Shown here: piece by piece, positions 6,078-55,120 of the stretch | How the letters are laid out: each line of letters starts with the position of its first letter | How positions within the stretch are numbered: the stretch's first letter is position 1 | NCBI GenBank assembly: GCA_964572345.1 | Contig: CAZNFA010000006.1 | Span: forward strand, 89,437-153,436 | Direction of reading: 5' to 3' | Source of the DNA: an uncultured Planctomycetales bacterium | GTDB taxonomy: Bacteria > Planctomycetota > Phycisphaerae > UBA1845 > Fen-1342 | DNA: 64,000 nucleotides | Program-made: the position numbers and the translations under genes | The notes under the pieces: generated by a model | What the model saw: only the letters and a program-made list of their open reading frames with translations | Told to the model about the DNA's origin: nothing | The model's database searches: none

Positions 6078-6839
6078 ATGCCGATCCGCCCTGATCAGGC
6101 CATCGTGCTGCGATTGAGCGACTACTCCGAGTCGTCGCAGATCGTCTCGCTGTTCACGGCCGGCAGCGGGCTGGCGCGGCTGATCGCCAAGGGCGTGCGG
6201 CGCGGCACACGCCAGCGCTTCGCCGCCGGGCTGGACCTGCTCGAGTACGGGGAGGTGAGCTACGCCCCGCCGCGCGGCACTGCCGGGTTGGGCACGCTGA
6301 CCGAGTGGGTTCAGCGCGACGCGTTCGCGGGGCTACGCAGAAACCTGCTTTGCCTGTACGGCGGCCTCTACGCGGCCGAACTGGTGAGCGCGTTGACCGA
6401 GGAGTACGACGCACACCCCGGGCTGTTCGCCGCGCTGCTCGCAGCTCTGCGCGAGTTGTCGGCGGCGAAGCAGCCCGTCGCGACGATCGTCCGGTTTCAA
6501 CTCGAGCTGGCCGCCGCGATCGGCTATGCCCCGCAGCTCCACGAGTGTGTGGGCTGCGGGCGGCCGCGGGCCCGCGGCGCACCGGCGTATTTCAGCTCGA
6601 CCGCCGGAGGCTTGCTTTGTCGCGACTGCGAGATGCACCACGTCGAAAAACGGCGGGTCTCGCCGGCCATGATCGATCAGGGACCACAGGCCACCAACTC
6701 CGAGCAATGGTTCGACCTGCTCGACTACCACTTCAGCCACGTCGCCGGCAAGGCTTTCAAGACGGCCGACCGGCTGCGAGCGCTGCCGCTTGACGGACGG
6801 GCGCGGGGGCCCGGAAGCCGGGGCCGACCGCGAACATGA
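6078..6839 (+). CDS. recO: DNA repair protein RecO
   Basis: N-terminal OB-fold motif MPIRPDQAIVLRLSDYSESSQIVSLFTAGSGLARLIAKGVRR and a C-terminal zinc finger CVGCGRP...LLCRDC. Internal ATG at 6078 within track ORF 5904..6839. Confidence 0.8.
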   Translation: MPIRPDQAIVLRLSDYSESSQIVSLFTAGSGLARLIAKGVRRGTRQRFAAGLDLLEYGEVSYAPPRGTAGLGTLTEWVQRDAFAGLRRNLLCLYGGLYAAELVSALTEEYDAHPGLFAALLAALRELSAAKQPVATIVRFQLELAAAIGYAPQLHECVGCGRPRARGAPAYFSSTAGGLLCRDCEMHHVEKRRVSPAMIDQGPQATNSEQWFDLLDYHFSHVAGKAFKTADRLRALPLDGRARGPGSRGRPRT

Positions 6840-6864
6840 TGGTCTTCCCGGTGCGTGTCACGTT

Positions 6865-7569
6865 ATGATACAGGAGAAGGGAACGCGCGGCGTGAACGAC
6901 GAGTCGGAAAGTCTGCCGGAAGTCGTCCCGGTCTTCCCGCTCCCGGAGATCGTGCTGTTTCCGCGCGCCATGTTGCCGCTGCACGTGTTCGAGCCGCGTT
7001 ACCAGGCCATGACGGTTGACGCGTTAGCGGGGGACGGGGCGATTGCGGTGGCCCTGCTGCGCCCGGGGTTTGAACCGCTGTACTACACGCGGCACGCACC
7101 GATCCATCCGATCCTCGGGCTGGGGCGGATCGTCGCCTCGGAAGAGCTCGAGGAGGGCAAGTACAACATTCTGATCCGCGGCGAGGCCCGCGGGCGGGTG
7201 ATCGAGGAGCTGTCGGGACACCCCTACCGCCGAGCCCGCATCGAGCAGGTCCGCCCCTTCTGTCACCAGGCGGAGCCGGCGCTGCAAAAGCTGCGGCGAG
7301 CGCTGCACCACGCGGTCCGGGACAGTCCCTTCGGCGACACGGACATCCGCAAGCACTGGGCGAGCCTGCTGAAGATGCCGCTCGGATTGGGCGACGCGAC
7401 CGACCTGATCGTCAGCGGGCTGCCGATGGACGGCGAGTTGAAACAGTGCTTTCTCGCCGAGGCGGACGTGCCCGCACGGGCCGCAATGCTGCTGAACGAG
7501 ATTCGGACGTTGAGCGCGGTTACCCGTCAGCGCCGCCGCCTCGCCGACGACGAATGGAGGCTGAATTGA
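6865..7569 (+). CDS. LON N-terminal (substrate-binding) domain protein
   Basis: VPVFPLPEIVLFPRAMLPLHVFEPRYQAM...ILGLGRI matches the Lon N-domain (PUA-like). Start at the ATG (MIQEKG) followed by AGGAGAAGG. A GTG at 6891 is an alternative. Immediately downstream of recO. Confidence 0.65.
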   Translation: MIQEKGTRGVNDESESLPEVVPVFPLPEIVLFPRAMLPLHVFEPRYQAMTVDALAGDGAIAVALLRPGFEPLYYTRHAPIHPILGLGRIVASEELEEGKYNILIRGEARGRVIEELSGHPYRRARIEQVRPFCHQAEPALQKLRRALHHAVRDSPFGDTDIRKHWASLLKMPLGLGDATDLIVSGLPMDGELKQCFLAEADVPARAAMLLNEIRTLSAVTRQRRRLADDEWRLN

Positions 7570-17774: not shown

Positions 17775-20700
17775 ATGAAACGGTGCAGTTCTCGCCGATT
17801 GAGCCTGGTGGTGATAGGGATGCTTGCCCTGGGGTGGCTCGGTTCGCAACCGGCGGCCGACCTGAACTCACCACACGCCGCCGCCGCGGCCGCAGCCTGG
17901 CCACTTTGCGACCCGCCCGTGATCATCACGCACCCGGAGAGCGTGACGCTCTGCGAGGGGCTGGCGGCGGAGTTCAGCGTCGAGGCCACCGGGACCGAAC
18001 CGCTGGGGTACCAATGGCGCAAGGACGGTGTCGAGCTTGCAGACGACGACCGAGTCAGCGGTTCACTGACCGACACCCTGACGATCGACCCGGTCACGCC
18101 CGGCGACGCCGGTGACTATGACGTTTTCGTCCAGAACGCCTGTGGCGACGCGACCAGCGACCCGGCGACGCTGACGGTGGATGCGCTCCCGGTGATCATT
18201 GAGCAGCCGACCGACGAAAACGTCTGTGCGGGTGACGCGGTCATGCTCACCGTCATAGCCGAGGGGGCCGAGCCGCTGAGCTACCAGTGGCGCAAAGACG
18301 GGGTCGAGATAGATGGGGCGACCGAAAGCTCGTACGCGATCGACCCGGTGACGGTCGATGACGCCGGCGATTACGACGTGGTGGTGTCGAACGAGTGCGA
18401 CACGACCACCAGTGACGCCGCGACCCTATTCGTCGGGCTGCCAGAGATCACCGAGCACCCGGCAAGTCAGTCCGTCTGCAACGGCGCGCGGGTCACACTG
18501 GCGGTCAACGCGCTCGGCGGCGACACGGTTATCACGGAGGACACCATTGGCTCGACGGAGGACCCCAGCCATGGAGCCCGCATCCGCGGGAACGCTTACG
18601 CGGTAACAACGCCCGCGCTGCTCACGCGGATCGAGCACTATCTGGACATCACGACGCCGGGAACGATCATCTTCTTTGTCTATGAGGCAAACGATAGCGA
18701 GGCGCCATACACGCTCATCCTGGAGGAGACGGTCGCCGACGCGGGCCCGGGCGAGGGTTTCTACGCGTCCAATCCGGTGTACGTGCCGTTGCGGGCGGGC
18801 CGGTACTACATCATCGGGGCCGCCTGGCCGGGCGATCACAGGTACTATTGGGGCGGGTCACACCCGCAGCCGACCTCTTTCGGCCAAACCATCAGCGGCT
18901 ACGCGGTGCCGTACGAGTACCCGCTCCCGGACGACCCGTCACCGACTTCGAACAATGTCCCCCGTCAACGCTTGACCACCACCGCGACCTCCCTGCTGTT
19001 CCAGTGGCGTAAGGACGATGAGGACATCCCCGGAGCGACGGACCAGGTGTACGTGTTGGAGTCGGCACTGCCGGCTGACACGGGCGACTACGAGGCAGTG
19101 GTCACCAACGACTGCGGCTCGACGATCAGCGATGCCGCCGCGGTAATCGTCGCCGAGGCGCAGCCGACCATTGTGCAGCAGCCGGCCGATCAGGCAGCCT
19201 GCGTCGGCGAGCCGGTCACGTTCACCGTCGTCGCCGAGGGCGGCGGGCTGAGTTACCAGTGGCGGAAGAACAGTGCGGAGATCGAGGGGGCGACGGAGTC
19301 GGTCTACACGATCGATCAAGTCAGCGGCGCTGACCAAGGCCAATACGACGTACTGGTGAGCAATGGCTGCGGCTCGATTACCAGCGCGGCCGCGACGTTG
19401 TCCGTAGCAAGCGCCGCTCCGTCGATCACCCGGCAGCCGACCGACCAGGCCGCCTGCGACGGGGGTAGCGCGACGTTTACAGTGGTGGCCGCGGGCAACT
19501 GGCTGGGCTATCAGTGGTGGAAGGACAACGAGGAAATCCCCGGGGCGACTGAGTCCTGGTACACGATCGACCCGGTGTCGTCGCTCGACGAAGGCTACTA
19601 CGAAGTGGTGGTGAGCAACGCGTGCGGCTCGGTAGCGAGCGATGTCGCCGTCCTGACCGTCGTGGAGCTCGGCCCGACGATCACGCAGCAACCCAGCGAC
19701 GTGGACGCCTGTGAGGGCGGGTCGGCGACGTTCACCGTCGCGGCCGACGGTGAAGAGCTCAGCTACCAATGGCGCAAGGGCGCCCAGGACATCCCTGGGG
19801 CCACCGAGTCCTCTTACACGATCGACCCACTCTCCGAGGCAGACGAGGGCACGTATGACGTGGTCCTGACCAACCCGTGCGAATCGGTCACCAGCGATTC
19901 GGCGGAGCTGACAGTAGACTCTGGGCCGACGATCACCGAACACCCCGTCGGACAAACCGGCTGCGAGGGCAACCAGGTCACGTTCACGGTAACCGCCGAG
20001 GGGGAGGTCATCGGCTATCAGTGGCGGAAGGACGATGAGGAGATTCCTGGGGCGACCGGTCCGTCGTACACGATTGATCCGGTGTACCCCTCGGATGCCG
20101 GCGATTATGACGTACTGGTCAGCAATGACTGCGGGACGATCGCCAGCGACACCGCGACGCTGGTCGTCGTCAGCGGCGAACCGGCCATAATAGAGCAGCC
20201 GCTTAGTCAAACGGTCTGTGAGGGCGTTGAAGTCACCTTCAGTGTCACGGCGGAGGGTGACCTCCTCAGCTATCAGTGGCGGAAGGACGGCGACGAGATT
20301 CCCGGGGCGAACGACTCCACGTACGTGATCGGCGCCGTGTCAACCGACGATGACGCGTCTTACGACGTGGTGGTGAGCAACGCGTGCGGCACCGCAACCA
20401 GCGACGCAGCCACGCTGACCGTCCAGACCTGGCCGTCGATTACCGAGCACCCGGCCGACCAACACAAGTGCACGGACGAATCGGTTACGTTCCACGTGAC
20501 GGCCGAGGGGACGGAGCCGCTGAGCCACCAGTGGCGCAAGGATGGCCAGGACATCCCCGGTGCCACGAGCGATACCTACACGATCGACCCGCTGAGCTAC
20601 GAAGACGCCGGCAGTTACGACGTTATGGTAACGAACACGTGCGGGTCGGTGCTGAGCAACGCGGCGGTGTTGACGGTGTCCGCCGGGGCGCAAATCGACG

Positions 20701-22088
20701 TGCAGCCGTGCGACCAGGCGGCTTGCGCGGGGGAGATGGTGCAGTTCGAGGTAGAGGCTTCTGAGGCTGGGGGCTCCGGCGTCGTGAACACCATCGGCTC
20801 GGCGGGCAGCTCGGGCACCGGCGCGTTCGTACGCGGCAACTACTACTCCGTCAGCTCGACGACCACGCTGACCCGCATCGAGCACTACCTGAACATCACC
20901 GTGACCGGGTCGCTCGTGTTCTTTGTGTATGAGGCCCCAGTAGACCAGCAGAACCAGTACACGTTGATCGCCGAGGACCGCGTGGCCGATTCGGGTACCG
21001 GAGAAGGGTTCTACGCCTCCGGCCCGTTGAACGTGACGCTGGAGGCGGGCAAGTACTACATCATCGGCACGGGCTGGCCGAGTTCGCACAGGTACTACTG
21101 GGGCGGCTCACACCCGCAAACGACCGCGTTCGGTCAGTCGCTCTACGGCTATGCCGGGCAGTACCAGGACCCCCTGCCGCAGATCGCGCCGTACAACACG
21201 TCCACCGTCGTGCACCACCAGCGCTTGACGACCAGCAACGCGACACTGTCGTACCAGTGGCGTAAGGACGGTGAGGATATCTTGGACGCCACCGAGCCGG
21301 TGTACACGATCGACCCGGTCACAACGGATGATGCCGGCTCGTACGATGTGCTGGTGAGCACCGACTGTGGCTCGGTGACCAGCGATCCGGCCGCGCTCAC
21401 GGTGGAGAGCCCGCCGGCGATCACACAGCAGCCGACCGACCAGGCCGCGTGCATCGACGGCCCGGTCACGTTCCAGGTCACCGCCGTCGGCAGCACGCCA
21501 CTGACCTACCAGTGGCGGAAAGACGGCGAGGACATCGACGGCGCGACGCAGAGCTCGTACACGATTGACGCGGTTTCCACCGAGGATGCCGGCGAGTACG
21601 ACGTGGTGGTCAGCAACCCGTGCGGTTCGCAGACCAGCGAGCCGGCGACGCTGACGGTCACCGACGTGGGGCCGTCGATCACCGAGCACCCCGCGGACCA
21701 GATCGTCTGCGAAGGCGACGCCGTGATCTTCACCGTGGTCGCCGAGGGCGACGGCCTCAGCTACCAGTGGCGCAAGGACGATGAGGAGATCCCCGGGGCG
21801 ACGGAGTCATCGTACACAATCGACTCAGTTTCGCTCGCCGATACGGGTAACTACGACGTGGTCGTCACCAATCCGTGCGGGTCGGAAACCAGCGAGGCGG
21901 CGACGCTGGGCGTGGCCGAGCGGCCCGCCGGCGACCTCGACCTCGACGGCGACGTGGACCACGCCGATCTGGGGATTCTCCTGGCAAGTTGGGGAATCGA
22001 CGACGGCGGCGACCTCGATGGCGACGGCGACACCGACCACGCCGACCTCGGCATCTTCCTAGCCAACTGGGGCCGCACCTGCCTCTGA
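17775..22088 (+). CDS. Giant secreted Ig-like-repeat protein with C-terminal dockerin-like repeats
   Basis: 1437 aa with a signal peptide. There are ~12 repeats of ~90 aa with the conserved pattern P.IT.QP.DQ..C.G..VTF.V.AEG..LSYQWRKDG..IPGAT.S.YTID.V...D.G.YDVVV.N.CGS.TSD.A.L.V. Two copies of an inserted ~140-aa domain (...GNAYAVTTPALLTRIEHYLDIT...RYYWGGSHPQ...). C-terminal DLDLDGDVDHADLGILLASWG / DLDGDGDTDHADLGIFLANWG is dockerin-like. RBS AGGAGGTGAGGC before the ATG. Confidence 0.85.
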   Translation: MKRCSSRRLSLVVIGMLALGWLGSQPAADLNSPHAAAAAAAWPLCDPPVIITHPESVTLCEGLAAEFSVEATGTEPLGYQWRKDGVELADDDRVSGSLTDTLTIDPVTPGDAGDYDVFVQNACGDATSDPATLTVDALPVIIEQPTDENVCAGDAVMLTVIAEGAEPLSYQWRKDGVEIDGATESSYAIDPVTVDDAGDYDVVVSNECDTTTSDAATLFVGLPEITEHPASQSVCNGARVTLAVNALGGDTVITEDTIGSTEDPSHGARIRGNAYAVTTPALLTRIEHYLDITTPGTIIFFVYEANDSEAPYTLILEETVADAGPGEGFYASNPVYVPLRAGRYYIIGAAWPGDHRYYWGGSHPQPTSFGQTISGYAVPYEYPLPDDPSPTSNNVPRQRLTTTATSLLFQWRKDDEDIPGATDQVYVLESALPADTGDYEAVVTNDCGSTISDAAAVIVAEAQPTIVQQPADQAACVGEPVTFTVVAEGGGLSYQWRKNSAEIEGATESVYTIDQVSGADQGQYDVLVSNGCGSITSAAATLSVASAAPSITRQPTDQAACDGGSATFTVVAAGNWLGYQWWKDNEEIPGATESWYTIDPVSSLDEGYYEVVVSNACGSVASDVAVLTVVELGPTITQQPSDVDACEGGSATFTVAADGEELSYQWRKGAQDIPGATESSYTIDPLSEADEGTYDVVLTNPCESVTSDSAELTVDSGPTITEHPVGQTGCEGNQVTFTVTAEGEVIGYQWRKDDEEIPGATGPSYTIDPVYPSDAGDYDVLVSNDCGTIASDTATLVVVSGEPAIIEQPLSQTVCEGVEVTFSVTAEGDLLSYQWRKDGDEIPGANDSTYVIGAVSTDDDASYDVVVSNACGTATSDAATLTVQTWPSITEHPADQHKCTDESVTFHVTAEGTEPLSHQWRKDGQDIPGATSDTYTIDPLSYEDAGSYDVMVTNTCGSVLSNAAVLTVSAGAQIDVQPCDQAACAGEMVQFEVEASEAGGSGVVNTIGSAGSSGTGAFVRGNYYSVSSTTTLTRIEHYLNITVTGSLVFFVYEAPVDQQNQYTLIAEDRVADSGTGEGFYASGPLNVTLEAGKYYIIGTGWPSSHRYYWGGSHPQTTAFGQSLYGYAGQYQDPLPQIAPYNTSTVVHHQRLTTSNATLSYQWRKDGEDILDATEPVYTIDPVTTDDAGSYDVLVSTDCGSVTSDPAALTVESPPAITQQPTDQAACIDGPVTFQVTAVGSTPLTYQWRKDGEDIDGATQSSYTIDAVSTEDAGEYDVVVSNPCGSQTSEPATLTVTDVGPSITEHPADQIVCEGDAVIFTVVAEGDGLSYQWRKDDEEIPGATESSYTIDSVSLADTGNYDVVVTNPCGSETSEAATLGVAERPAGDLDLDGDVDHADLGILLASWGIDDGGDLDGDGDTDHADLGIFLANWGRTCL

Positions 22089-29714: not shown

Positions 29715-30275
29715 AAGCGGCAGAGCAGGCCTGTAAGCCGGATTCTGTACCCGCCGCGATTGCGGCGGGCGGCGGCCATTCGTCTGGGCCCGCCGTTGCC
29801 GACGGGCTCGAGCGCCCTACCCGGGGCTGGCTAGCGAGCCGGGCCGGCTCATCGCCCCCTACTTGGGCTTGCTGGCGGTGGGGTTTGCCCTGCCGTCCCG
29901 ATCACTCGGGACGCGGTGCGCTCTTACCGCACCATTTCACCCTTGCCTGTGCGGGGTGACAAGGTGACAACGTCACAAGGTGACAGATGAGTGCCCGGCA
30001 GCCTTTGCTAGCCGGTGCGAGCGACGCCGAGGGTCACCAAGCCTTTGTCACTTTGGCACGTTGTCACCTTGTCACTCCCGCCATCGGCGGTGTGGTTTCT
30101 GTGGCACTTTCCCTAGGATCGCTCCCGGTGGCCGTTAACCATCACCGTGCCCTGTCCAGTCCGGACTTTCCTCCCTTGACACGCCGCCGCGGGCTCCGCC
30201 CGTCGCTGCAACGCAGCGAGCCGCGCGAAGCGCGGGGCGGCGTGTCAAGGGCGACCGCCCGGCCCACTCTGCCGT
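29715..30275 (-). ncRNA. rnpB: RNase P RNA (bacterial type A) with a large inserted hairpin
   Basis: Minus-strand matches to universally conserved RNase P RNA blocks: GGAAAGUCCGGAC (P4 5' strand, plus ~30160), AGGGUGAAAUGGUGCGGUAAGAGCGCACC (P10-P12, plus ~29920-29948), ACAGAAUCCGGCUUA (P4 3' strand, plus ~29740). A putative P1 forms between GGCAGAGUGGGCC (plus 30261-30273) and GGCCUGCUCUGCC (plus 29719-29731). Boundaries are approximate, to roughly 10 nt. Confidence 0.85.
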
Positions 30276-43127: not shown

Positions 43128-44294
43128 CTACGTGCTCGATTGAGCTTCAACGACATCTATGATGCGCCGAGCCACGTAGACCTTGTACCGCTCCCTACCC
43201 GTGACCTCCGTGAGAATGTCGGCATTGACCATCTTCTCGATATTCAGCGCCGCCGAACGCTGCGTAATCCCCAGGCGCTCCGCCGCTCGCGGAATCGTCA
43301 CGACGGGATAGAAGAACAAGTCGTCCACCAGGCGCAGCAACAGCGCGGACGATCGGGCCGCGACGAACTGGCCCCTGTATTCGTCCCACAAGTCGAGCAG
43401 CCGCTTGGCCCGTGCTACCGCGTCATGCGATTGCTCGGCCACCCCGCGCAAAAAGAACAAAATCCACGGCAGCCACGCCCCTCTGCGGCTCACATCGAGC
43501 AGCAGGCCGTAGTACTGATCGCGGTGGCGCTCAAAGAAGGCGCTCAGATGCAGCAGCGGCTGCGGCAGCAGTCCCTCCGAACAGAGCAAGAGCGAGATCA
43601 ACAGGCGCCCGATCCGACCGTTCCCGTCGAGAAAGGGGTGAATGGCCTCGAACTGATAATGGATTAGCGCCAGTTGCACGAGCGGCGGAAGCGGTGACTT
43701 AGCGTGAAGGTATGCTTCGAAGCCTCCGAGCGCATCCTCCATTTCGGGAACCGGCGGAGGCACGTACGATGCCTCCATCAACGTGCAGCCGGGTGGCCCA
43801 ATCCAGTTCTGGCTGCGCCGAAACTCCCCCGGTGCCTGGCGCTCTCCACGTACGCCCTCCATGAGCTTGGCATGAAGCTCGCGGATCAGGCGCAGGCTCA
43901 CCGGTAGCTCGGTGAGACGCCCCAAGCCGTACTCCATGGCCCGGACGTAGTTCATCACCTCGTGCACGTCGGGGGCCTGTGGACGATCCGGGGCCGGTCC
44001 GTTGGCGGCTTCGAAGAAGAAAAGGTCGGACAATGATGCCAGCGTCCCCTCGATACGGCTGGACAAGACCGCCTCACGGCGGACAAAGGGCCCGATAAGC
44101 AGGTGTGGGTTCGGCAGGTTCGTGGCCGTTCCGGCCAGCAGGCCCAGCGCCCGGTCCGCCTCCGATACCTGGTCCGCCAGCTCCCAGCCCGGCTCCAGGG
44201 TGGGCGGCAGAGGATTCGGTACGAACGCCCAATAACCCTCGGCTGCTCTCGTAAGCTCGCCCCACCTATCTTCCGTAAAATCAGTGGGTTGCAT
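43128..44294 (-). CDS. Fic/DOC family protein (putative AMPylase)
   Basis: Canonical Fic motif HPFLDGNGRIGRLL. N-terminal Fic-N region. C-terminal winged-helix-like segment. Confidence 0.85.
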   Translation of the reverse strand: MQPTDFTEDRWGELTRAAEGYWAFVPNPLPPTLEPGWELADQVSEADRALGLLAGTATNLPNPHLLIGPFVRREAVLSSRIEGTLASLSDLFFFEAANGPAPDRPQAPDVHEVMNYVRAMEYGLGRLTELPVSLRLIRELHAKLMEGVRGERQAPGEFRRSQNWIGPPGCTLMEASYVPPPVPEMEDALGGFEAYLHAKSPLPPLVQLALIHYQFEAIHPFLDGNGRIGRLLISLLLCSEGLLPQPLLHLSAFFERHRDQYYGLLLDVSRRGAWLPWILFFLRGVAEQSHDAVARAKRLLDLWDEYRGQFVAARSSALLLRLVDDLFFYPVVTIPRAAERLGITQRSAALNIEKMVNADILTEVTGRERYKVYVARRIIDVVEAQSST

Positions 44295-44530: not shown

Positions 44531-45139
44531 TACGCAGGTCGGGTCATCGACCCGACACTTCCGTCCGCAGCCCCAACGGGGCGACCGACCGTAGCCCAGG
44601 ACGCAAGTCCTGGGTAACCAACCCACCCCAAATCCCCACAGCCCCGCACGGGGCGACAGAACACACCCCGGCAGACGACAGGCGGCCAGAGCTACCGGCG
44701 TTGCTCGGGCTGAACGTGGTTGGCGAAGCGGAGGGCGGCGTAGAGGTCGTTGTCCGAGCGGTCGTGCATGCGGGCTCCGGCGGGCGGCACGTTTGGTGTT
44801 CAAATCCGTCCCCCACCGCTGAAGCGATGGGGCACCCTGCGGAGGCGCGCAGCGGACGCAGCGCCTGTCTAGGAATTATAGGCAGGGAACAGGGATCAAG
44901 GGATCGAGGGATCAAGGGAACGAGGGATGGCGGGGAATTGGTGGTTTTTGGCGGGTTATTGGCGGGGTTTGATACAGCAGAGCTCGGCTCGGAAGATTGA
45001 CCACGGAGCACACGGAGATCGCAGAAAGGCGGGTGCCCCAGCCTTTCAAGGCTGGGGGACGGACCTCGCGGGAGAGAAGACGATGATCGAAAGCGGTGGC
45101 ACCCGGCCCGGCGGTTACGCCTCGTGGTCGATGCCGGGG

Positions 45140-46115: not shown

Positions 46116-47279
46116 TCACGAGGCTTCCTTGCGAACGGCTCCATCTGCAACAAACAAGAGATAGTCGATCATCGCCACGACCTGGAGCACGCGTTCTGGC
46201 TGCAGATTCTCTACGAGGCGATGGTGCACTTGGTTCCTGATGAACCCGAATACACCCCGGAAAAGAAGATGAGCAGCTTCCTGCTCGGCAGCGACCTCGC
46301 TCACGGTCAAGCGCGGGGCAGAACCGCCAAAACAGTACTTGGCTAGTTCGAGACCGATACATGTCGCGGCTGCCCCGGACAGCCGTCGAAGGCGATTTTC
46401 CAACACCCTAGTCGCATCGGTGACCACCGTGTCGAGCCGGTCGTGCTGCCCGTCTTCTTTGAAGGCTGCGAGAAGGTCGAGGCAGCGCTTTCGTAGGTCC
46501 GCGTCGAGGATCTCGATGGTATCGATCACCACGGGCTTAGGAGCCCGGACTTGGCTAAACGATTCGGCAAGGTCTCGCTTGGGGCTGTCCGGTTGGCCAT
46601 CGGTGATCACGACGTCCTCGACCATCAAGGGCCACGGGGAGGCCTGTCGAAACACGCCGAGCCCGGTCTTCTCTTCAAAGTGGCCGATCCGTTGGTCGAC
46701 TGCGTGCAGGGCGTGCTTGGAAACGTTGGCCCGCGATGCCAGGACGTTTCGACGCTGCCGGAGATGTGCCAAGTAGAGCCCGCAGACGGACTTGATGAAT
46801 CGCACCCATCCATGGCTGATATTGACATCGTAGTCCGACGCGTCCGCGCCGCCCTTACTGATTTGCCCCTCCATCCAGGTTCGCACTCGTTGGGCCCGTC
46901 GCGTTTCCCGGTCGATCTCGAACGTGCTGCGCTGGCGCTCGCCCAGAATCAGCTTTAGATCAGCATCTTGTTCGATGGCCTCCATGTCGGCCGTAAGCAG
47001 GGAGTCGTAGAACTTGACCGCGGCGAGGTAGAACTCAAAAGTGTCCCGATTGAAGGACACCCAATGGTACTCGTGGTGATCGGGTGGCTCGGCTCGCTCT
47101 TCGGACACGTCTTCGTCCTCTTTCCTGTCGACTAACGGTCGGTTGCACTGCTGGCGGTCCGCGTCCTCGTGTGCTACTGCTCTCGAGCGGTGTCCTGCGG
47201 GGGGAACGCACAAGTACCGCCCGGTGTATCGCCTGGCCGGGTGCCATCGTGTCTTCCGGAACTCGCGTCGGTGCGGCAA
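46116..47279 (-). CDS. Hypothetical protein, possibly with an Abi/Ymh-like C-terminal domain (candidate defence gene)
   Basis: The C-terminal part (...LELAKYCFGGSAPRLTVSEVAAEQEAAHLLFRGVFGFIRNQVHHRLVENLQ...MIDYLLFV) is reminiscent of the TIGR02391/Hypoth_Ymh domain found fused to abortive-infection proteins. This is a low-confidence recollection. Lower GC than its surroundings. The start is uncertain; the track ORF maximum is 47279. Confidence 0.4.
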   Translation of the reverse strand: MPHRREFRKTRWHPARRYTGRYLCVPPAGHRSRAVAHEDADRQQCNRPLVDRKEDEDVSEERAEPPDHHEYHWVSFNRDTFEFYLAAVKFYDSLLTADMEAIEQDADLKLILGERQRSTFEIDRETRRAQRVRTWMEGQISKGGADASDYDVNISHGWVRFIKSVCGLYLAHLRQRRNVLASRANVSKHALHAVDQRIGHFEEKTGLGVFRQASPWPLMVEDVVITDGQPDSPKRDLAESFSQVRAPKPVVIDTIEILDADLRKRCLDLLAAFKEDGQHDRLDTVVTDATRVLENRLRRLSGAAATCIGLELAKYCFGGSAPRLTVSEVAAEQEAAHLLFRGVFGFIRNQVHHRLVENLQPERVLQVVAMIDYLLFVADGAVRKEAS

Positions 47280-47439
47280 GGCCCGTCGCGCCGTCTCCGG
47301 GCGTCCTATCTGGTTTCCGCATCATGTGGCGGCCCGCGGTGCCACTGGCGGCCTGTGCGCCGATGCCCGCTGTACGCACGTATGATACTGGATCACCGAA
47401 AATAGGTCAAAGATCGACACAAGCGCGGGCGGGGCTACG

Positions 47440-47800
47440 GGCGGGCGGTATATTGACCGGTCGGAGACCGGTGGCACAGAAGACGGCCGGTACGGGGAGT
47501 GGACGGGGCATTGACCGGTCAGAGACCGGTCCCACAGGAGACGGCCGGCACGGAGACCGGCCGCTACATTAACCCTCGCTGGCGCTTCGGGCTCGGATTG
47601 GCCGCTTCCCCATAGTCTGGGTGCGAGAAAGGATTCTCGCACCAGACACCCGGTACATTAACCCTTGCTGGCGCGTCGGGCTCTGTTTGGCACGGCCGAG
47701 ACGGAACTCGGCCGCTACGTTCACCGGCCGGAGGCCGGTGCCACACATTGACCGGTCGGAGACCGGTCCCACAGAAGACGGCCGGCCGGGGCGCCGGGCG
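47440..47800. repeat. Noncoding repeat array: three ~45-nt direct repeats plus a second 2-3-copy repeat family and a hairpin
   Basis: Family 1: (T/C)ATTGACCGGTC(G/A)GAGACCGGT(C/G)(C/G)CACAG(A/G)AGACGGCCGG at ~47449-47493, ~47510-47552, ~47744-47787. Family 2: GCTACATTAACCCT(C/T)GCTGGCGC(T/G)TCGGGCTC at ~47559-47602 and ~47650-47692, with a partial copy at ~47710. Hairpin GTGCGAGAAaggATTCTCGCAC at ~47621-47642. Irregular spacing. Confidence 0.6.
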
Positions 47801-50572
<2,772 letters not shown>

Positions 50573-54129: not shown

Positions 54130-54321
54130 ATGCGCAGATTCGTAACATGCCTGGTGCTGCTGGCGTGTCTGTGGGCCGGTCCGATCGTGCAAGCAGACGT
54201 GGAGTACGATCTGCTTTTGCAGGAGTTCGAGCAAGCGCAGCAGCAATGGTTCCAGCAGCTTCGTGAGGCAGAGGTCTCTAACAGTCCGGTGCAAAAACGC
54301 TCGACGGCGCGAGTCCCGTAG
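54130..54321 (+). CDS. Small secreted protein (63 aa), hypothetical
   Basis: GAGGAGGG RBS before the ATG. Signal peptide MRRFVTCLVLLACLWAGPIVQA, then a helical Q/E-rich stretch. Opposite strand to the flanking T6SS genes. Confidence 0.4.
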   Translation: MRRFVTCLVLLACLWAGPIVQADVEYDLLLQEFEQAQQQWFQQLREAEVSNSPVQKRSTARVP

Positions 54322-54409
54322 CGTCGGACCTCCCAGTCCGACGTCTCGACGCCATGAACGCGGGCGCGCCGGACTCGGAGGTCCGGCGCTACAGTTTTGC
54401 ACCGGACTG

Positions 54410-55120
54410 CTAGGGCAGCTCTATCCCGCCGCGCGAGCCAACGGCGTGCCCCACGATGGTGTCTGCCAGGTGGGTCAACAGACCGTGCCAGGCCTGGCAC
54501 AGCGGCGGCATTTCGTAGTGCAGCAGGTCGGCCAGCAGCACCATGTCGCGGGCCTCGAACGCGTCGCGGAGTTCCCGCAGCTTCTCGGCCAACTCGCTGA
54601 AGTGTTCGCGTATGGGACGTTCGCCATATTCGACCGCCGTCAGGTCTTCGCCCAGCAAGGCGCAGCACCGCACGACGACTTGCTGGCCCGCCTGCCAAAC
54701 GCCGACCAACTCACCGACACGCTCCAGGGCCTCGGTGACCTGACCGGCGTTGAGCTGGTCCGCGACTTCCTGCTGGGCCTGGCCTGCCGCCGTGAGCTGC
54801 TCCGCGGCTTGGCGCAGGGCGTCGGCGACGATGGCGCGCGGGTCACCCGACTCCAGATCAACCCGGTCCTGCGGCGCAGGTGGCTGCGACAAACGCGCGT
54901 CGAGATCTTCCGGGAGCAGAAGCTGGCCGTTTACGGCGACGGAGACGACCAGCCGATCAGGCAGGTGTTCCGCGCGAACCCGGTCAATGAGCGCTTGCAG
55001 CGTGTCCGCGGAAGTGAAGTCTGCCTCCATGCGTTGGCCGTCGAGCGTTACGATCACAGGTCGCTCTCCGTTTTCGGTGATATCGGACCGTCGGCACCGG
55101 GCGGCTGAGCGCCCGGGCAA
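54410..55120 (-). CDS. Hypothetical protein upstream of tssE (unassigned)
   Basis: 236-aa ORF, GC3-rich. The N-terminal PVIVTLDGQRMEADF...VVSVAVNGQLL suggests a small beta-grasp-like segment followed by a helical region. No T6SS core family recognised. Start uncertain. Confidence 0.4.
   Translation of the reverse strand: MPGRSAARCRRSDITENGERPVIVTLDGQRMEADFTSADTLQALIDRVRAEHLPDRLVVSVAVNGQLLLPEDLDARLSQPPAPQDRVDLESGDPRAIVADALRQAAEQLTAAGQAQQEVADQLNAGQVTEALERVGELVGVWQAGQQVVVRCCALLGEDLTAVEYGERPIREHFSELAEKLRELRDAFEARDMVLLADLLHYEMPPLCQAWHGLLTHLADTIVGHAVGSRGGIELP

Follow-up and report, generated by a model that had tools for sequence, protein, structure and literature searches.

REP elements are short G+C-rich stem-loops preceded on the 5' side by an unpaired GT[AG]G, and they are common in the intergenic DNA of many bacteria. 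In Escherichia coli they stabilise the 3' ends of mRNAs, and REPs near stop codons have been studied. REP-RAYT systems serve as a model for domesticated transposases, and how RAYTs last so long as single-copy genes is an open question. According to a survey of GTAG-tagged REP families (Di Nocera, De Gregorio & Rocco 2013, PMC3733652), such families occur, among others, in Rhodopirellula baltica and Opitutus terrae, that is, in Planctomycetes and Verrucomicrobia. In that survey, GTGG is a documented variant of the tag and sub-families differ by complementary changes in the stem; the units lie mostly downstream of genes, where GTAG heads supply TAG stop codons; clusters of units are reiterated together with their flanking DNA, and copies occasionally stand in frame within genes. 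Head-to-tail dimers are given there as rare, inverted pairs (REPINs) being the usual mobile unit (PMC3733652).

Here we examine an array of repeats that lies just after the stop codon of clpV within a stretch of 64,000 nucleotides (the window, which means this whole stretch). We consider it very probable that the array is a cluster of GT[AG]G-tagged REP elements arranged as a BIME-like mosaic. Like the GTAG-tagged REPs of that survey (PMC3733652), its elements have a stem of 6-9 bp, a loop of 2-5 nt and, on one side, a terminal unpaired GT[AG]G. The family to which they belong also matches the REP traits given there, namely complementary sub-families, location at the 3' ends of genes, use of TAG stops, reiterated clusters and in-frame copies.

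The clpV gene occupies 47801-50572 on the minus strand, with its stop codon at 47801-47803, and the repeats fill the first 380 nt (in minus-strand direction) of the non-coding gap of 692 nt that follows this stop; the next minus-strand gene past the gap, at 46116-47108, carries the Pfam domain Hypoth_Ymh. GC content is 64-70% in the T6SS genes and drops to 56-61% past the junction. The preliminary description was right to place the repeats where T6SS genes meet lower-GC defence-like genes, a placement reinforced by a relative (L091, see below) that has a different gene beyond the junction. When up to three mismatches were allowed, the 21-mer ATTGACCGGTCRGAGACCGGT matched at 47452, 47510 and 47747 and had no fourth copy elsewhere in the 64-kb window, with no match in shuffled sequence and none expected by chance. 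In a 59-nt register the three copies span 47451-47509, 47509-47567 and 47746-47804 and are 78-86% identical, which bears out the earlier report of three near-identical repeats. The same is true of the interleaved second repeat family that had been reported, which consists of two 42-nt copies at 47561-47602 and 47650-47691 with 88% identity. The units lie 58 and 237 nt apart, with repeats also making up the DNA in between; because the spacing is irregular, Tandem Repeats Finder called no array in the window.

There are eight occurrences of the octamer GACCGGTC in the window where 2.8 would be expected, five of them inside the repeat stretch. The palindromes recorded in the preliminary description are present as octamers but not as independent palindromic sites: in each unit the two octamers pair as the arms of a single 8-bp hairpin whose loop is 3 nt long. 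On the minus strand, every GACCGGTC-type hairpin has an unpaired GTGG on its 5' side. Two features had been overlooked. Each unit also closes with a second hairpin followed by CTAC, which on the minus strand reads GTAG plus CGGCCGG-N8-CCGGCCG, and there is a fourth copy of the first hairpin type at 47722-47740, with both arms changed (CACCGGCC-GGA-GGCCGGTG). Altogether about eight tagged hairpins of two kinds, A and C, follow the clpV stop within 380 nt, five of them perfect (47513-47772) and three decayed, in a single orientation with all heads on the minus strand. The consensus of type A is GTGG-GACCGGTC-TCY-GACCGGTC (stem 8 bp, loop 3 nt), and that of type C is GTAG-CGGCCGG-N8-CCGGCCG (stem 7-8 bp, loop 6-8 nt). 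The two types alternate head to tail in units of 58-59 nt and are interleaved with motif B and hairpin D; the stop codon of clpV is the TAG of the last GTAG head. Following the transcription of clpV, the elements are:

47778-47804, minus strand: REP type C, copy 3; a GTAG head with an imperfect hairpin, GTAGCGCCCGGCGCCCCGGCCGGCCGT, that aligns with the other type-C copies
47750-47772, minus strand: REP type A, copy 3; GTGG plus GACCGGTC-TCC-GACCGGTC, stem of 8 bp and loop of 3 nt
47722-47744, minus strand: REP type A variant, copy 4; GTGG plus CACCGGCC-TCC-GGCCGGTG, both bases altered in two of the stem pairs
47693-47718, minus strand: REP type C, copy 2; GTAG plus CGGCCGAG-TTCCGT-CTCGGCCG
47656-47690, plus strand: motif B, copy 2; CATTAACCCTTGCTGGCGCGTCGGGCTCTGTTTGG, the second dispersed repeat
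47616-47646, no strand assigned: hairpin D; TCTGGGTGCGAGAAAGGATTCTCGCACCAGA
47567-47601, plus strand: motif B, copy 1; from the repeat comparison
47542-47567, minus strand: REP type C, copy 1; GTAG plus CGGCCGG-TCTCCGTG-CCGGCCG
47513-47535, minus strand: REP type A, copy 2; GTGG plus GACCGGTC-TCT-GACCGGTC, identical to the hairpins that flank the RAYT of locus L018
47483-47509, minus strand: decayed REP type C; head and palindrome lost, 74% identity to the reference copy
47455-47477, minus strand: REP type A, copy 1; slightly decayed, with the head GTGC and one stem-base mismatch
47382-47410, minus strand: promoter-like TTGACC-17-TATCAT; faces the Hypoth_Ymh gene, lies outside the repeats and is kept in L091

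Several of these elements have counterparts at other loci. The hairpin of type A copy 3 is found unchanged on many contigs, including L044, and elements nearly identical to type C copy 2 occur in L080 and L079. Hairpin D, which had been announced as a hairpin with a 9-bp stem, is present as a bulged stem of 5+8 pairs with one bulge (TCTGG-G-TGCGAGAA/TTCTCGCA-CCAGA); its sequence GGTGCGAGAAGGGATTCTCGCACC adjoins REPs in L118 and is also present in L091. The core of motif B, CCCTCGCTGGCGCTTCGGGCTC, recurs in L037, twice in L108 and three times in L091. Since motif B and hairpin D occur at unrelated loci, the entire spacer is a mosaic built from dispersed repeats. As a side observation, motif B (core CCCTCGCTGGCGCTTCGGGCTCGGAT) accompanies GTAG hairpins in the window, in L037 and in L108; no hairpin or tag of its own is obvious in it, and no convincing function for it was found. 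The REP model does not account for motif B and hairpin D.

The array thus shares with the BIMEs of E. coli a mosaic of REP types (A and C) and other short conserved motifs (B and D), set in an intergenic position at the 3' end of an operon. It differs from them in orientation, which alternates among the REPs of E. coli BIMEs and is uniform for all hairpins of the cluster (47455-47804). It also departs from typical GTAG-tagged REPs as the survey describes them (PMC3733652), since the units of the array all stand head to tail. Neither the stem found here nor the peptides that it would encode appear in the text and supplements of Di Nocera et al. (2013); the stem may still be that of one of its 24 families (PMC3733652).

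Our results indicate that the family is widely dispersed. The preliminary description had proposed to search the rest of the genome for copies; copies exist on other contigs and in MAGs; it had also allowed for the opposite outcome of no further copies and a coding sequence in relatives, and the stretch proved to be non-coding in the relative. When one genome per species was scanned for the exact pattern, the hairpin with a TT prefix turned up mainly in Planctomycetales MAGs. One of these, CAZXUI01, carries it at nine distinct sites within 32 kb, among them head-to-tail arrays that have a period of 27-28 nt and no spacers. At least 119 metagenome contigs contain the exact hairpin followed by CC, and a single metagenome, Ga0214473, has the hairpin on seven contigs. 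Among the matches listed, the hairpin is followed by the bases CTAC in 59 cases, CCCC in 44 and CCAC in 37, which correspond to GTAG, GGGG and GTGG on the opposite strand. With a simple gene caller based on GC3, a context was assigned to 95 clusters among the matches listed: 44 lie between genes of the same direction, 20 between convergent and 4 between divergent genes, and 27 (~28% of those classifiable, with this crude caller) lie inside called ORFs, some of which are real in-frame insertions and some probably over-called ORFs. The distance to the upstream stop codon has a median of 46 nt and is at most 5 nt for a quarter of the clusters. This distribution is the pattern that has been published for REPs in the survey cited above (PMC3733652).

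Other forms of such clusters in relatives are recorded here in their own right. In L007, eleven head-to-tail REP units of 27 nt (1737-2030) lie in frame and encode DRSETGPPC x 11 within an ORF of 471 aa with a His-rich loop and membrane segments; this ORF looks like a metal transporter and has no Pfam match. In L012, at least 13 tandem units with a period of 27-28 nt and without spacers (6677-7149, with a run of N inside) directly follow a gene whose product has a dockerin-like C-terminus, and in L134 similar 30-nt tandem REP arrays flank a free-standing RAYT on both sides. The window itself contains a gene at 17775-22088 (plus strand) for a 1437-aa protein with many Ig-like repeats and a dockerin-like DxDGDGDVD end, the DNA of which is 72-86% similar to gene ends in two Planctomycetales MAG loci (L011 and L012) and two metagenome contigs (L100 and L118). 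A Pfam DUF1570 match at threshold, the dockerin-like C-termini in common with Planctomycetales MAG loci and the REP family itself place the source organism roughly in Planctomycetota. The in-frame copies in relatives, that is, the eleven nine-residue repeats of the L007 transporter-like ORF and the PurH linkers described below, resemble Rickettsia palindromic elements (RPEs) and intragenic REPs in being tolerated within coding sequence; unlike Rickettsia palindromic elements, the copies in the window are all non-coding.

How fast such a cluster changes can be seen at the same locus in a relative. Three metagenome contigs match the window at 100% identity and hence offer nothing for comparison. 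L091 (Ga0307379_10003571) is 95% identical over tssG and clpV. Its post-clpV spacer combines REPs of both types with motif B and hairpin D, in other number and order. Its clpV stop codon likewise lies within a GTAG head, but a different hairpin is attached to that head. About 80 nt containing the promoter-like TTGACC-17-TATCAT are conserved, and the gene behind them is unrelated to that of the window (L091:4460-4821, after the REP cluster, against window 46116-47108). Judged from these sequences, this suggests that the downstream gene was replaced at the junction in the manner of a cassette. The reshuffled modules and the different downstream gene, both found where the preliminary description had proposed to look for an insertion in relatives, imply that the cluster turns over fast and forms the border of a variable segment, which beyond the junction includes a strong SoFic match.

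Other readings of the array have been considered. Each GACCGGTC octamer is a perfect palindrome, the two octamers of a unit lie 11 bp apart, which is a spacing of one helical turn, and the promoter-like site ~45 nt from the array faces the Hypoth_Ymh gene, so that the octamers could be taken for operator sites of a dimeric regulator of the downstream gene or of the T6SS operon. However, the octamers change jointly and keep the complementarity of the arms (GACAGGTC/GACCTGTC, CACCGGCC/GGCCGGTG and GTCCGGTC/GACCGGAC), and these joint changes abolish the palindromy of the individual octamers. In a set of 42 distinct 19-mers with at most four substitutions from the consensus and a REP-like tail, 93.5% of the cells form standard pairs, and compensatory changes affect six of the eight stem pairs, with 26 cells altered on both sides; none of 500 shuffles reached this signal, and sliding the partners destroyed it. 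The conserved object is therefore the hairpin, which counts against operator sites in duplex DNA. Moreover, the unrelated contexts that contain the element number over 100 and are most often the 3' ends of genes, sometimes sites in frame within them, and gaps between divergent genes, where operators are expected, account for only 4 of the 95 clusters. We thus regard regulator-binding sites, one of the options in the preliminary description, as very improbable. A further option, in which every unit would be an independent small-RNA gene or structured cis-regulatory RNA, accords with the position of the units in a non-coding stretch of ~690 nt and with folding that is far better than that of shuffled sequences on both strands (z = -4.6 and -4.1), but any palindrome folds well on both strands. 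Stem mismatches show no strand bias (4 G-T versus 10 A-C), which lends no support to selection at the RNA level. Rfam gave nothing for the array, either when the region was scanned permissively or when the entire window was scanned at gathering thresholds, the best score being 22.8 bits for Atu_Ti1 against a threshold of 55. Promoter and terminator patterns are absent from the individual units, each of which opens with a TTGACC that has no matching -10, and the units are reshuffled in the 95%-identical L091, unlike conserved sRNA genes. An array of small RNAs accordingly seems very unlikely.

The preliminary description had also named MITE- or REP-like elements, and here the two parts fare differently. 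The REP part is sustained by the tagged hairpins, their dispersal and extragenic bias, the compensatory stems, and the cognate RAYT in relatives. MITEs with terminal inverted repeats moved by a DDE transposase, or remnants of insertion sequences, would likewise be repeated, non-coding and situated at a variable junction. Yet there are no terminal inverted repeats or target duplications, a search for inverted repeats returned hairpin arms only, and what is conserved amounts to 19 nt of hairpin plus a tetranucleotide tag. There is no transposase ORF nearby, and the enzyme found beside identical hairpins in relatives is a Y1 transposase (RAYT), not a DDE one, which makes this reading extremely improbable. 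A decayed or atypical CRISPR array might be suspected from the short, partly palindromic repeats and the defence-rich surroundings (SoFic at 43128-44294). The preliminary description had set it aside on account of the irregular spacing, rightly so, because the supposed spacers are themselves repeats; the anatomy had already refuted such an array. In addition, units in relatives abut head to tail in REP arrays with a period of 27-28 nt and no spacer at all, and the hairpin had no match among viral contigs, phage records and plasmid records. We give a CRISPR array practically no credence.

In relatives a transposase is found beside the very hairpins of the window, inside purH. A phmmer search with E. 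coli RayT found no homologue among all ORFs of ~130 loci. The RAYT of L018 was recognised from the translation adjoining three type-A hairpins, which reads as the C-terminus of a RAYT; the segment scores 81.5 bits with NCBIfam NF047646 ('REP-associated tyrosine transposase', cut-off 80) and 24.3 bits with Pfam Y1_Tnp (cut-off 23), and phmmer with this RAYT found no second copy among the fetched loci. On its flanks lies GTGGGACCGGTCTCYGACCGGTC, in inverted orientation and identical to window copies 2 and 3. The RAYTs of L140 and L141 are flanked by GTGGCACCGGCCTCCGGCCGGTG, which is identical at 23 of 23 positions to window copy 4, and the assembly of L140 (WBZO01) also contains L044, a dispersed cluster of the GACCGGTC type. 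Free-standing RAYT homologues with 48-52% identity each lie between GTAG or GTGG hairpins of their own, as expected of REP-RAYT units.

The L018 RAYT has neither a start nor a stop codon of its own and lies in frame within purH (L018:4514-7012, minus strand). When its 752-residue product was used as the query of a protein search, its own database entry (100%) was recovered along with more than 90 proteins of 740-920 residues that are 50-67% identical over ~99-100% of the query length. In JGI annotation these proteins bear the name "PurH/REP element-mobilizing transposase RayT", and NCBI gives Planctomycetota, Phycisphaerae or Phycisphaerales MAGs as their sources (loci L018, L137, L138, L139, L140 and L141; proteins P0121-P0220). 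The 91 sequences that were aligned have the insert at a single position in the AICAR transformylase part of PurH, which makes at least 91 proteins with the fusion. Neither histidine of the HUH motif varies among these sequences, and at least 90% of them retain the catalytic tyrosine. Ordinary PurH proteins (553-574 residues) are without the insert. One protein, P0231, contains the hairpin-encoded peptides and no RAYT, which, from its sequence, looks like a scar of insert loss. Four fusion loci have the gene upstream of purH in common, and the hairpins at fusion loci differ from one another by compensatory changes (GACCGGTC, GACCGGTT/AACCGGTC and CACCGGTT/AACCGGTG). The linkers around the RAYT in PurH are encoded by the REP hairpins. 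In an AlphaFold model (mean pLDDT 85.5) the insert forms a confident separate beta-alpha domain at residues ~310-450, and the low-confidence linkers coincide exactly with the hairpin-encoded peptides.

A literature search found no paper mentioning RAYT together with purH, and in the work of Quentin et al. (2018) unexpectedly long proteins were discarded as fusions or annotation errors (PMC6006769). The conserved PurH::RAYT fusion thus appears to be undescribed. The arrangement resembles that of REPIN-RAYT systems (Bertels & Rainey 2011, PMC3116915; Nunvar et al. 2010, PMC2817692; Ton-Hoang et al. 2012, PMC3333891): hairpins of one kind stand inverted on either side of a single RAYT, and more of them are scattered over the rest of the genome. 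Two differences from these systems are that the cluster in the window is without inverted doublets, and that the RAYT of the relatives is an in-frame insert of purH and not a free-standing gene. In the relatives the fusion is directly tied to the exact hairpins of the window. Neither a RAYT nor a purH lies in the 64-kb window, so for the source genome we infer the fusion from its relatives. We put at roughly even chances the fuller proposal that the repeats in the window are dispersed offspring of a RAYT that, in this planctomycete lineage, is permanently inserted in frame in the essential purine enzyme PurH and joined to it by REP-encoded linkers, such that the transposase would be made only within PurH, inherited vertically and hard to lose.

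Further elements elsewhere in the window deserve mention. The available 64 kb hold one type A cluster, and in all the type A/C cluster and a second pair of GTAG hairpins at 54318-54392. The latter two are inverted and lie within a longer palindrome at 54280-54415, a REPIN-like element among T6SS genes (GTAGCGTCGGACCTCCCAGTCCGACG and its partner) that is 78% similar to a stretch of L062. This element has the form of a REPIN, that is, two inverted REPs in one long hairpin, which the array does not. At 44569-44614 (minus strand), between the SoFic gene and the next gene, Rfam recognises Acido-Lenti-1 RNA (46.4 bits, cut-off 37), and the plus strand of the same bases reads as a GTAG-tagged hairpin, GTAGCCCAGGACGCAAGTCCTGGG; for this reason the Acido-Lenti-1 'RNA family' may overlap with REP-like elements. 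The match to bacterial RNase P RNA class A at 29718-30270 (minus strand) measures 553 nt against a model of 367 positions, which implies sizeable insertions. As for the defence-like genes, the Fic-domain gene at 43128-44294 (minus strand) is a strong PADLOC SoFic match (E = 3.5e-116), the Hypoth_Ymh gene at 46116-47108 (minus strand) is a weak match to PD-Lambda-3_B (E = 1e-4), and both have a lower GC content than the T6SS genes.

We propose the following course of events for the REP cluster. On the basis of established REP biology, RAYT, a Y1 HUH enzyme, would recognise the single-stranded hairpin together with the tetranucleotide of REPs, which are non-autonomous, and clusters would then enlarge and become reshuffled through local duplication and recombination. 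In the source genome, mobilisation would have been carried out by the same RAYT as in the relatives. Lying where the clpV transcript ends, the hairpins would probably serve as 3'-end structures of the RNA that hinder exonucleases, and they would probably also insulate the T6SS operon in part from the acquired genes downstream. The lack of strand bias among stem mismatches speaks against such a role of the RNA.

As a REP cluster the array is itself ordinary: it is selfish or structural intergenic DNA and not a defence or regulatory device, and it marks where the T6SS operon borders on swapped-in defence-like genes, a boundary that changes fast. If the proposal of a RAYT held within PurH is true, it would represent a route of transposase domestication that has been undescribed so far, in which the spread of REPs is tied to the expression of purH. 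The PurH-embedded RAYT, with its catalytic residues intact in at least 91 sequences, offers a concrete case for the persistence of RAYTs.
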